Below, one piece after another: positions 3,313 through 48,678 of a DNA stretch of 64,000 bases. Position 1 is the first letter of the stretch, and every line of letters starts with the position of its first letter. The notes under the pieces were generated by a model. It made no database searches. It saw nothing but the letters and a program-made list of their open reading frames with translations, and was not told the origin of the DNA. Made by a program: the position numbers and the translations under genes. Source of the DNA: an uncultured archaeon (lineage in GTDB: Archaea; Asgardarchaeota; Lokiarchaeia; Sigyniarchaeales; SOKP01); assembly GCA_964388035.1 (NCBI GenBank), contig CAYLZE010000006.1, positions 1 through 64,000 of the forward strand, read 5' to 3'.

Positions 3313-3990
3313 ATGAATCTATCTGATTTTCTATTTGATGAATCTTTAATAACCAGTAACCTAAAAAAGTATATCGATTCTTCAAGATTATCCATGAATC
3401 ATCCTGGATTTGTAAAATCTGCGGTAGTAGTTTTATTATTACCTTTAAACAATCAACCCTATGAATTAATATTAATTCGTCGCACAAAAAGAAAAGATGA
3501 TAAACATTCCGGTGAAATGGGTTTTGCTGGGGGCGTTTTTGATGGCCAAAAAGATAAAAATTATGAAGATACTGCATTAAGAGAGGTTAATGAAGAATTA
3601 GGCATTCCAAGAACAAATATAAAGATTTTGGGATGCCTGGATGATCATTTAACCCCTAAAGGATTCATTATTACTCCTTTTGTAGGATACGTGCGAAAAA
3701 ATACGGAAATGGTCAAACAAGAAGCAGAAGTTAAAGAAATCGTTAAAATTCCCGTTACTTTTTTCGCCAACAAGAAAAATTATAAAGAGAAAACCTACAT
3801 GATTAAAAATGATCGGATTGGAGTCGGGAAGTTTCGATTTACTGCTCCGAATGGAGAAATATATACCATTTTTGGTGCTACTAGCCATATTATAGTGAAT
3901 TACATGGATACTGTTCATGAAATTGGACTAATCACTCCCGGCATTAGACGTATCCGCTGTGAGGATATTGCGGACAAGATTGTAAAATAA
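3313..3990 (+). CDS. Nudix hydrolase, CoA pyrophosphatase (NUDT7-like), tandem paralogue
   Basis: KSAVVV, HSGEMGFAGG..TALREVNEELG and IFGATS motifs. Confidence 0.9.
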   Translation: MNLSDFLFDESLITSNLKKYIDSSRLSMNHPGFVKSAVVVLLLPLNNQPYELILIRRTKRKDDKHSGEMGFAGGVFDGQKDKNYEDTALREVNEELGIPRTNIKILGCLDDHLTPKGFIITPFVGYVRKNTEMVKQEAEVKEIVKIPVTFFANKKNYKEKTYMIKNDRIGVGKFRFTAPNGEIYTIFGATSHIIVNYMDTVHEIGLITPGIRRIRCEDIADKIVK

Positions 3991-4010: not shown

Positions 4011-4028
4011 GAAAATTTCAATTTAAAT
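4011..4028 (+). promoter_or_regulatory. putative BRE/TATA promoter of tRNA-Sec
   Basis: GAAAA followed by TTTAAAT about 25-30 nt upstream of the tRNA 5' end. Confidence 0.45.
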
Positions 4029-4068
4029 CAAAGGTTAAGCCTTATAGAAGTGGCCCTTGACGGTCGGA

Positions 4069-4098
4069 ATTTTAAATCACCTCGATTTTCGACGATAA
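4069..4098 (+). other. tRNA-Sec intron 1 (30 nt, D-arm, about position 15/16)
   Basis: Bulge-helix-bulge: helix GTCG(4063-66)/CGAT(4093-96), bulges GAA and AAG; removal restores the 7-bp D stem with a TGGT loop. Confidence 0.85.
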
Positions 4099-4156
4099 GT
4101 GGTCTCCGACGCTGGGCTTCAAACCCAGTTTTCCCGCGGAGGGATAGGAGTTCGAT

Positions 4157-4187
4157 AATGGATGGGAACAATCCCCTCGGTCGATAA
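4157..4187 (+). other. tRNA-Sec intron 2 (31 nt, T-loop, position 59/60)
   Basis: Relaxed BHB: TTCG(4151-54)/CGAT(4182-85) with one U-U mismatch, bulges ATA and AAT; removal gives the T-loop TTCGATT. Confidence 0.8.
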
Positions 4188-4430
4188 TCTCCTCGAGGGC
4201 CGCCATTTTTCTACTATAAAGAATTTTAGGTTAAATAGTTCTCTAATGAATGAAAATTCCTATATCTAAGTAAATTTGATCGATAATCAAACAGGTAAGG
4301 ATAATTTATTGAAGATTCACTTTCCTTAATATTATTCAAGAGAATTTAATTTTATTTAGCAAAAAAATATCTTGAAAAAAACCTTATTAATTGTATTTAT
4401 TACATCCAAGTACTATAGAAGAAACTTAAA

Positions 4431-5792
4431 ATGGTAGATTTTTCTAATATTATCCAATATTTTACAAGCACTCCCATTCCTCAGAACATGCTCAACAGAG
4501 GACAATTAGTATTGAATGAATTTTTAAAGCCAATAAAAATTCTTTTTGAGCAAAAAGCAGTTCCTGAGGACCCCTGGACGGATGAACAAATTAACTACTT
4601 GTTGGAGATTCTGTCGAACATGGATACGGATAAAGATGCAGGAGCTGCGAGGGTTGGAGAACGAGAAGCTCGAATTGCCACCAAATTGCACCTTCAAACC
4701 TCGGCAGGCTTTTGCCATGGAATCGGGAGGAGTGGATTTCTCACAGCACCTCAACCGAAAGCTCCGGGAGGTTCTATTATGTATGAAATTGCGAATTATT
4801 TGGCTCGTCATTTTTTAAAAAAATTTGGTCTTCCCAATATTAAAAAAGCCATCGTTGTTCCCTTATGCACGGGCATGTCTTTAGCTTTATGTTTAAGTGC
4901 CTTGAGACCAAAAATAAACGATTCCCAAGCGATATATAAGAATTCTGTTTTAATCCCTCAAGTTGATCACAATTCCTTGTTAAAAGCTTGTGATTTTGTC
5001 GGAGTAAATAAAAAAATAATAAATGGTAAAATATTTGGTGATGCAGTGCGAATCCCAATAGAAGATATCCATCAAAATTACGATGAAAGCTGTTTTGCCG
5101 TGATATCCTTGACGAGCTTTTTTCCTCCTAGAGAACCAGATGATATAAAAGGAATAAGCGTGTTTGCGAAAAAAAATGATTTGGTACACATCGTAATTAA
5201 TGCATATGGTGTTCAAAACCCCGAATGGATGAAATTAATAAGATCCGCCATCGATGCAGGAAGAGTAGACGCCATTATTCAATCGACTGATAAAAATTTT
5301 CTCACCCCCGTAGGTGGAGCGATTATTGCCTCTCCAAATAAAGAGACCATGACAAAGGTAAGTAGAACCTATGCCGGACGGGCAAATGCAACTCCCGTCG
5401 TCCAATTTTTAGTTTCTGCACTTTCTTTAGGAATAAATGGATATCAAGATTTATTAAATAAACAACAAGAAAATCGGCGATTATTGGAAGAAAAACTAGG
5501 AGAGCTTGCTGACAAGTTGGGGGAGAAAGTCTTAAACGTTTTCAATCCCGTGGCAGTAATGATGTCATTAAAGAATTTACCAAGAGATAAGATATACTCC
5601 TTGGGTGGAGCTCTTTACAACATAAGAGTTACAGGTCCAAGAGTATATAATCCCGCAGAAAAATCTTTTGGTACTTGTTGCGATAATTATCCCATTCCTT
5701 ATATCGTGATGAACTCTGCAATCGGTGCCACTAAGGAGGATATCATTAATGCTGTGGATCGCTTAGAACGAGCATATCATCAAATTAGATAG
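4431..5792 (+). CDS. spcS: O-phosphoseryl-tRNA(Sec) selenium transferase (SepSecS)
   Basis: GEREAR, HGIGRSG, QPKA, TGMSL, NAYG and PLP-lysine motif QSTDKNF; adjacent tRNA-Sec. Confidence 0.95.
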   Translation: MVDFSNIIQYFTSTPIPQNMLNRGQLVLNEFLKPIKILFEQKAVPEDPWTDEQINYLLEILSNMDTDKDAGAARVGEREARIATKLHLQTSAGFCHGIGRSGFLTAPQPKAPGGSIMYEIANYLARHFLKKFGLPNIKKAIVVPLCTGMSLALCLSALRPKINDSQAIYKNSVLIPQVDHNSLLKACDFVGVNKKIINGKIFGDAVRIPIEDIHQNYDESCFAVISLTSFFPPREPDDIKGISVFAKKNDLVHIVINAYGVQNPEWMKLIRSAIDAGRVDAIIQSTDKNFLTPVGGAIIASPNKETMTKVSRTYAGRANATPVVQFLVSALSLGINGYQDLLNKQQENRRLLEEKLGELADKLGEKVLNVFNPVAVMMSLKNLPRDKIYSLGGALYNIRVTGPRVYNPAEKSFGTCCDNYPIPYIVMNSAIGATKEDIINAVDRLERAYHQIR

Positions 5793-48141: not shown

Positions 48142-48394
48142 GATGATTTTTTAAATTATTCCTTTAAAAAAATCTTTTTCCAAATAATATCCTAACAAGC
48201 AATAAATCTCTAATTTTGTAAGAATGATGCTTAAAGAAAAAAAGATTGAAGAAATGTTTTAATGAAGTGATTTTCAATGTTCGAATTTATAATATATAGC
48301 GTAAATCTCCAAAATACACTCTCCACTACCAGGATAAAAAAGCGGATTATCTAATTTTCCCAATCTATATATTCAATAAGGGAATTTAGAGTAA

Positions 48395-48467
48395 TAGTCC
48401 CGTCCGGATTTGAACCGGAGTCTCAGGGTTCAAGGCCCCATATGCTTGGCCGCTACACCACGGGACT
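48395..48467 (-). tRNA. tRNA-Gln (anticodon UUG), atypical anticodon arm
   Basis: AGTCCCG/CGGGACT acceptor with A1-U72 typical of archaeal tRNA-Gln; D arm GTGTAGCGGCCAAGCAT; loop CCTTGAA; T arm TCCGG-TTCAAAT-CCGGA. Confidence 0.88.
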
Positions 48468-48678
48468 AAAGAATCGGCAACAATATTTGATGATAAAGGG
48501 TTAAGTGAAAAAACAATATTGTTGTAATATTAAAATGATCTAGTATTAAAAATATAACGAGATATTAATTTTTTATTATTTTTACCACTATTCTATAGTA
48601 CAAAACCTCTAACTAATGGGAGAAGTTTTTTCAAAACACGCAAATTAAAAATCATTTAGCGCATGAATAAAATGGGAT

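Follow-up and report, generated by a model that had tools for sequence, protein, structure and literature searches.

Is the interrupted tRNA-Sec locus that lies next to the SepSecS gene in a Lokiarchaeial genome a working selC and, if so, how would its two inserts be removed? The locus occupies positions 4052-4205 (plus strand, 154 nt) of the window, by which we mean the whole 64,000-nt stretch of DNA that was analysed, and it yields a 93-nt archaeal-type tRNA-Sec only once 4069-4098 and 4157-4187 are removed. The genome is a MAG of 211 contigs (5.47 Mb, 96.7% complete, 7.3% contamination), placed in the Promethearchaeota (Lokiarchaeia-type) on the basis of the relatives of its SepSecS. The best explanation, to which we assign a probability of about 0.9, is that the locus is a functional selC, the only one found in the assembly, with two bulge-helix-bulge (BHB) introns that would be spliced by EndA and RtcB. 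Gene structure, junctions, motif conservation and the enzyme genes were computed; that the gene is transcribed, cut and ligated, and in which order its introns would leave, is inferred.

The interrupted gene and its detection

Joined, the segments 4052-4068, 4099-4156 and 4188-4205 reproduce exactly the 93-mer, with its coordinates, that was proposed in the initial annotation, and ARAGORN identifies this spliced form as tRNA-SeC(tca). The product has a 9-bp acceptor stem and a 4-bp T stem, that is, the 9/4 fold, together with a 6-bp anticodon stem, a UCA anticodon, the G73 discriminator and an encoded CCA. After removal of intron 1, the D stem reads GUCGGAG/CUCCGAC, with 7 bp and a 4-nt loop, UGGU. 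The variable arm is long, with a 4-bp stem and a 5-nt loop, and all 32 modelled stem pairs are standard in the exons.

All parts of the gene are on the plus strand. Exon 1 (4052..4068) contains the 5' strand of the acceptor stem (9 nt), a linker of 2 nt and all but the last nucleotide of the 7-nt 5' strand of the D stem; the intron-less orthologue L019 begins with the same 17 nt. Intron 1 (4069..4098, 30 nt) is inserted within the D-stem 5' strand, at linear position 17/18; its boundaries can be slid by 1 nt (to 4068-4097), leaving the product unchanged. Exon 2 (4099..4156) begins with the last nucleotide of that strand, followed by the D loop UGGU, the D-stem 3' strand and the anticodon arm, with the UCA anticodon at 4119-4121, and continues through the variable arm and the T-stem 5' strand to nucleotides 1-6 of the T loop. 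Intron 2 (4157..4187, 31 nt) interrupts the T loop between positions 59 and 60, and exon 3 (4188..4205) supplies nucleotide 7 of the T loop, the 3' strands of the T and acceptor stems, the discriminator G and the CCA (4203-4205).

The sequence around the gene contains two putative transcription signals. A TATA-like box, TTTAAAT (4022..4028, plus strand), precedes the 5' end of the tRNA by about 24-30 nt and is a possible archaeal promoter, weakly indicated in a spacer that is AT-rich throughout. The run of five T that directly follows the CCA (4206..4210, plus strand) is likely to be an archaeal terminator signal. The CCA itself is encoded here and in 22 of the 23 aligned tRNA-Sec genes, the remaining one (L023) ending in GCTT; archaeal tRNA-Sec genes have been said not to encode CCA (2022 review, PMC9499178).

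The initial annotation had claimed that the D-stem and T-loop introns both have to be removed for the tRNA-Sec fold to emerge and that standard finders would probably miss the gene, and both claims are borne out. ARAGORN makes no call on the unspliced sequence or on either half-spliced form, recognizing the fully spliced form alone, and under permissive settings the unspliced locus scores 25.3 bits against RF01852, versus a gathering score of 47. In the raw window, ARAGORN and Rfam (at the gathering score) call only a tRNA-Gln (48394-48468). The permissive RF01852 alignment pairs the tails of both introns as an acceptor stem; this pairing was discarded as an artefact created by the palindromic TCGA, since 9/9 positions are paired in the true acceptor stem. 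The intron-less orthologues, which serve as proxies for the spliced product, reach 53.9-63.6 bits on RF01852, and the closest intron-less allele, from a metagenome contig and with 5 differences from the predicted product over 93 nt, reaches 57.7 bits. In the genome search, a covariance model (R1) built from 11 intron-less orthologues aligns full length to 4052-4205 and accommodates the two introns as insertions (74.6 bits, E 8.5e-15); a local cmsearch run with its filters switched off gives a partial alignment only (48 bits). An intact selC elsewhere, which the initial annotation had raised as a competitor, was sought, and no second tRNA-Sec was found in this 96.7%-complete assembly.

Rfam at the gathering score and ARAGORN thus miss tRNA-Sec genes with a D-stem intron or with two introns, and therefore Sec-trait surveys of Asgard MAGs that use such finders can under-call selC. 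One earlier study identified no tRNA-Sec in Heimdallarchaeia or Odinarchaeia (PMC9723677). Annotation of the Sec trait is the main practical value of this case, which does not overturn current knowledge.

The genome-wide tRNA gene complement was also inspected. Across the 5.47 Mb, 22 tRNA genes are detectable with ARAGORN or 19 with Rfam RF00005; ARAGORN calls an intron in 15 of the 22, and 14 of the 19 RF00005 matches are 99-116 nt long. Given that most of the detectable tRNA genes carry an insert, interruption of tRNA genes appears to be heavy throughout this Lokiarchaeial genome, with most tRNA genes probably interrupted and many of them hidden.

Splicing motifs and folding of the precursor

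In the standard BHB layout, which is used here, the 4-bp helix H pairs the exon nucleotides immediately preceding the 5' bulge with the intron nucleotides immediately preceding the 3' bulge, and the cuts are taken after the second nucleotide of each 3-nt bulge. For intron 1 (motif 4063..4099, plus strand), helix H pairs GUCG (4063-4066) with CGAU (4093-4096), and the register table places the bulges at GA|A (4067-4069) and AA|G (4097-4099). The outer exon helix (4061-4062 with 4100-4101) has only 2 bp, G.U and C:G, and the intron contains an internal hairpin (4074-4078 with 4084-4088). For intron 2 (motif 4147..4192, plus strand), the outer helix is the T stem itself, GGAG (4147-4150) with CUCC (4189-4192); the central helix joins UUCG (4151-4154) to CGAU (4182-4185) through three Watson-Crick pairs and one U-U, and the bulges are AU|A (4155-4157) and AA|U (4186-4188).

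Pairing in these motifs was counted on two separate alignments (A2 and A3) because the MAFFT alignment A1 misplaces exon 3 in genes without intron 2. Among the ten homologues aligned for intron 1, 100% of the 68 cells are paired, compared with 18-59% after a shift of the partners by 1-3 columns. Helix H retains 4/4 pairs (one of them G.U) in 10/10 homologues, with the bulges in register, and one of its pairs changes from C:G through U.G to U:A. Among the twelve homologues aligned for intron 2, 85% of the cells are paired versus 48-67% in the slid controls, with the T stem at 100% and helix H at 90%; helix H has 3/4 pairs plus the U-U here and 3-4/4 pairs in the 11 other homologues, where the partner of UUCG is in most cases UGAA or CGAA. 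Because conserved pairing exceeds that in the slid controls, both introns are taken to be BHB introns in the correct register.

The initial annotation had described a BHB with standard cut points at each junction. The cut points stand: they coincide with the junctions of the intron-less orthologues, and in 11 of these and in one metagenome-contig allele the exons are joined at GGTCGGA|GTGG and TTCGAT|TC, as predicted. The motifs themselves depart from the standard form in the U-U of intron 2 and the 2-bp outer helix of intron 1. Compared with the strict hBHBh' form, intron 2 has the 4-bp T stem as h and a mismatched hairpin as h', and the h of intron 1 is only 2 bp long. The predicted BHB of intron 1 is accordingly a relaxed, HBh'-like motif, and that predicted for intron 2 is slightly degenerate in this genome; an alternative extended helix in intron 2 could remove the 5' bulge.

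Both introns here end in CGATAA (4093-4098 and 4182-4187). For intron 1, this ending is found in nine of the ten homologues, with CAATAA in the other one. The shared ending was considered as a conserved feature and rejected: intron 2 of the relatives ends in UGAAAA, CGAAAA, YGAAAN or similar sequences, so the sharing is peculiar to this genome. In intron 2, the CGATAA ending comes at the cost of the U-U mismatch in the T-loop BHB.

Folding predictions with ViennaRNA place the two motifs in different situations. In the free 154-nt precursor, six D-stem pairs are kept with a probability of about 0.99 and helix H of intron 1 has a probability of about 0; the BHB of intron 1 can be imposed only at a cost of 6.1 kcal/mol (-51.7 vs -57.8). 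In nine other genes with the D-stem intron, the cost is 1.0-6.1 kcal/mol, and this BHB is never part of the minimum fold. Helix H of intron 2 has a probability of 0.65-0.77 in the full precursor, and the T-loop intron motif would form within the cloverleaf. The D-stem intron motif would instead require GUCG, the first four nucleotides of the D stem, to pair with the intron decoy CGAU rather than with the D-stem 3' strand; with a probability near zero and a cost of 6.1 kcal/mol, cleavage of intron 1 would therefore need protein-assisted refolding. The competition between the D-arm intron fold and the D stem that the initial annotation had pointed out is thus recovered as a prediction, but its further suggestion that this competition acts as a maturation checkpoint is unsupported speculation.

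Splicing enzymes, the Sec pathway and competing explanations

The genome contains two genes with an EndA domain and an RtcB gene. The catalytic EndA (L031:1165-1773, 202 aa) matches the catalytic chain of the Aeropyrum pernix enzyme (3p1z_B, 1e-35), and its INKPR motif aligns with VEKPR of A. pernix, where K is chain residue 44 in the CSL/L1 loop; K44 of this Crenarchaea-specific loop is reported to confer broad EndA specificity (PMC5829648). The second EndA (L032:1201-1803, 200 aa) shares 29% identity with the first, and in the alignment to Methanocaldococcus jannaschii EndA a Ser occupies the position of the catalytic His. At least two EndA-domain matches are present in 36 of the 41 genomes of the order, so the second EndA is not a contaminant. 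The pair fits an (alpha-beta)2-type enzyme of broad specificity, its assembly and specificity being predictions, and (alpha-beta)2 EndA with the L1 loop in Asgard archaea has been published (Kaneta 2018, PMC5829648). The earlier proposal that a broad-specificity endonuclease removes these introns agrees with a catalytic EndA that keeps the CSL/L1 lysine alongside a structural paralogue lacking the His.

The gene for SepSecS, the O-phosphoseryl-tRNA(Sec) selenium transferase, lies at 4431..5792 on the plus strand (453 aa; Pfam PF05889, E 4e-115), next to the tRNA-Sec gene as first described. A selD homologue (G000:C47:26194-26994, plus strand; 184 bits) has one in-frame TGA and is presumably a selenoprotein that depends on this tRNA. 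With a SelB-like gene (236.7 bits) and a gene of the PSTK/KTI12 family also present, the Sec pathway of SepSecS, selD, SelB-like and PSTK-like genes appears, on paper, to be complete.

These components suggest the following route. The selC gene would be transcribed as a 154-nt precursor with two BHB introns, and the (alpha-beta)2 EndA would cut it at 4068|4069, 4098|4099, 4156|4157 and 4187|4188. RtcB would join the three exons into the 93-nt tRNA with the 9/4 fold, the 7-bp D stem and the UCA anticodon. The mature tRNA would undergo serylation and then phosphorylation by PSTK; the neighbouring SepSecS would convert it, and the SelB-like factor would bring it to UGA. Sec decoding in this lineage would thus hang on the tRNA-splicing machinery, and the D-stem intron sits in the very element that is read by archaeal PSTK.

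One could suppose that the T-loop insert is the sole EndA intron, with the D-stem insert either removed by another route or retained as an expansion. The 2-bp outer exon helix of the intron 1 BHB and its absence from the predicted free fold lean this way, as does the report that a substantial minority of Asgard D-arm inserts have no canonical motifs (bioRxiv 10.64898/2026.10.13.758758). We nevertheless consider it very unlikely, in view of the 4-bp helix and both 3-nt bulges in register in 10/10 homologues, with a compensatory change. A retained insert would, moreover, destroy the 7-bp D stem, to which archaeal PSTK binds according to Sherrer 2011 as cited in PMC5330540, and CSL-bearing (alpha-beta)2 EndA is known to cleave relaxed HBh'-type motifs (PMC5829648). 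Less probable again is a decaying selC pseudogene with two insertions, in a lineage that no longer decodes Sec or does so with a selC missing from the assembly. Such a scenario would accommodate the failure of standard finders, the fragmentation of the MAG into 211 contigs, and the divergent intron-less selC, with a D-stem mismatch, of the genus-mate G001. It is at odds with exons that are intact, have all 32 stem pairs standard and are conserved at 94% while the introns drift: across eight two-intron alleles, the mean pairwise identity is 94% for the exons, 65.6% for intron 1 and 54.8% for intron 2, which implies that the exons are under selection. At least nine further genomes from several genera have the two-intron layout, both inserts are in BHB register, and selD with its in-frame TGA is present along with the rest of the Sec machinery, no other selC having been found in the assembly.

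An assembly or binning artefact, that is, a chimeric contig or a contaminant selC, might be suspected from the MAG contamination of 7.3% and from the fact that this tRNA allele is nearer to those of other genera than to that of the genus-mate. This explanation is hardly credible when the contig that bears the gene measures at least 64 kb, SepSecS next to it clusters with that of the genus-mate (support 94/95), the synteny of NUDIX, tRNA-Sec and SepSecS is shared with relatives and the layout recurs in independent assemblies.

Intron states among relatives and published cases

A DNA search covered 40 relatives, after which 150 genomes of the phylum were searched with a covariance model, and homologous genes were found in most of the Sec-positive genomes searched. 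In this family they occur in several intron states. Genes without an intron are L013-L020 and L026 and, in a second family of the order, L022 and L023; the T-loop intron alone is present in G003 and G018 and, in the second family, in G039; the D-stem intron alone is present in G007, G008 and G175. Both the D-stem and the T-loop introns are found in this genome and in G004, G006, G011, G012, G013, G017, G024 and G139. An intron at 37/38 occurs alone in G172 and together with the T-loop intron in G021. Intron 1 occupies the same site in the 10 aligned homologues and in G139 and G175, and is absent from the 11 intron-less orthologues; intron 2 is present in the 12 aligned homologues.

The metagenome-contig allele comes from Ga0307433_1000339, a 39-kb contig with an intron-less tRNA-Sec (L091:6332-6424, minus strand) whose T stem, GGAG/CUCC, puts it in the allele class of the present gene. 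One metagenome scan for the spliced T-loop junction of this class returned a single hit, this 39-kb genomic contig with its intron-less allele, and no RNA-derived record. The allele can be viewed as a natural 'pre-spliced' counterpart of the two-intron genes.

In the survey made here, the D-stem 17/18 intron is confined to this Lokiarchaeial family, and other families have a D-loop intron instead. Other Asgard families have tRNA-Sec genes with two or three introns (L072-L076 and L079): D-loop, 37/38 and T-loop introns in G108, G091 and G056, D-loop, variable-arm-loop and T-loop introns in G061, and D-loop and T-loop introns in G075. Altogether, the number of introns in the surveyed Asgard tRNA-Sec genes ranges from 0 to 3, and five positions are used (D stem, D loop, 37/38, variable loop and 59/60). 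Multi-intron versions of tRNA-Sec are common in relatives and, judging from its sequence, the present gene would work as an ordinary archaeal multi-intron tRNA gene.

A Lokiarchaeota tRNA-Sec with a single 31-nt T-loop intron has been described (Mariotti 2016, PMC4989117) and was repeated as the only archaeal case in later work (Santesmasses 2017, PMC5330540; 2022 review, PMC9499178). The present gene resembles that tRNA-Sec, from Loki's Castle GC14_75, in its 9/4 fold, 7-bp D stem, 4-nt D loop, G73 and UCA, and in its 31-nt T-loop intron at the same site (here 4157-4187). Unlike the GC14_75 gene, for which one intron is described and whose distance from EFsec is about 6 kb, it carries a second, 30-nt intron in the D stem and is located directly upstream of SepSecS. 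Some Lokiarchaeia tRNA-Sec genes have been noted to contain 'unusual insertions and deletions' in a paper whose main text nowhere uses the word 'intron' (Sun 2021).

Multi-intron tRNAs of Asgard archaea have been reported (Valentin-Alvarado 2024, PMC11291895), and Asgard D-arm introns are described as systematically missed by annotators (bioRxiv 10.64898/2026.10.13.758758). The gene shares with the tRNAs of these two studies its short BHB-type introns at non-canonical positions, several per gene; unlike here, the studies cover Atabeyarchaeia, Freyarchaeia and Jordiarchaeaceae, and their text is silent on tRNA-Sec. Supplementary Data 4 of PMC11291895 lists an SeC(UCA) gene of 175 nt with 3 curated introns from Atabeyarchaeia and one with 1 intron from Freyarchaeia. 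The G075 gene (810387-810533) nearly coincides with the Freyarchaeia SeC entry, for which 1 intron is listed there.

The non-canonical and multiple tRNA introns of Thermoproteales and Crenarchaeota are cut by (alpha-beta)2 EndA with the Crenarchaea-specific loop (Kaneta 2018, PMC5829648; Marck and Grosjean 2003; Sugahara 2008; Hirata 2011). The present gene is similar to these in its relaxed, HBh'-like BHB at D-arm and T-loop positions, and the enzyme genes are of the heterotetramer type, with the loop lysine (K44) kept, as in A. pernix. It differs in that the host is an Asgard archaeon and the substrate is a tRNA-Sec whose elongated D stem is itself interrupted. The statement in the initial annotation that multi-intron tRNAs are mainly a feature of Thermoproteales is outdated (PMC11291895; bioRxiv 10.64898/2026.10.13.758758), and the novelty it implied was too high, with the 31-nt T-loop intron already published (PMC4989117) and a 3-intron SeC gene in the 2024 supplement. 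The literature searched yielded no account of a D-stem intron in Lokiarchaeial tRNA-Sec. What is new is the D-stem intron position for Lokiarchaeial tRNA-Sec; otherwise, the case is a modest extension of known biology.

The distribution of intron states can be set against the neighbouring genes. A NUDIX-domain gene (3313..3990, plus strand) lies directly upstream of tRNA-Sec, and the order NUDIX, tRNA-Sec, SepSecS is conserved, with the upstream NUDIX gene shared by L003, L020 and L021 whatever their intron state and SepSecS located downstream of tRNA-Sec in 16 related genomes. As a single-copy gene with conserved flanks and many states among close relatives, this selC is a well-resolved case for the gain and loss of Asgard tRNA introns.

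The adjacent SepSecS genes pair by genus: L001 with L020 (support 94/95), L004 with L015 (99/96) and L009 with L013 (81/38). In each pair, one genome has the two-intron tRNA-Sec and the other has an intron-less allele that is 11-20 nt different; the two-intron alleles of five genera are only 0-8 nt apart. This mismatch between SepSecS and tRNA-Sec suggests allele replacement, lateral exchange or repeated precise loss of both introns. Slow vertical decay would not fit the near-identical two-intron alleles across genera and the divergent intron-free alleles in sister genomes. A broader scenario, in which Asgard tRNA-Sec is a hot spot of intron turnover through whole-allele replacement or double precise loss and the D-stem intron, having to prevail over the D stem before it can be cut, makes the supply of mature tRNA-Sec depend on EndA as a regulated step in Sec decoding, strikes us as rather unlikely. 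One MAG (G012, 86% complete, 5% contamination) has a two-intron allele (L005) and an intron-less one (L026) on different contigs, a double allele that represents either a strain mixture or two real copies.

The neighbourhood is broken in some genomes, as the flanks of two of the two-intron genes indicate: in G024 (L002), tRNA-Sec is followed by a dihydroxy-acid dehydratase gene and not by SepSecS, and in G017 (L006), it is preceded by a 465-aa ORF. A homing-nuclease remnant beside the intron-bearing alleles was considered and not confirmed: the non-syntenic ORFs upstream of L002 and L006 have no Pfam or NCBIfam match, the L006 ORF has no PDB match, and the flanks of the present gene consist of NUDIX genes and spacer. 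The AT-rich spacer between tRNA-Sec and SepSecS (4206-4430) contains no ORF of at least 60 aa and gives only weak, chance-level Rfam matches. It is 225 nt long here, about 600 nt in the genus-mate G001 and well under 100 nt in most other members of the family.
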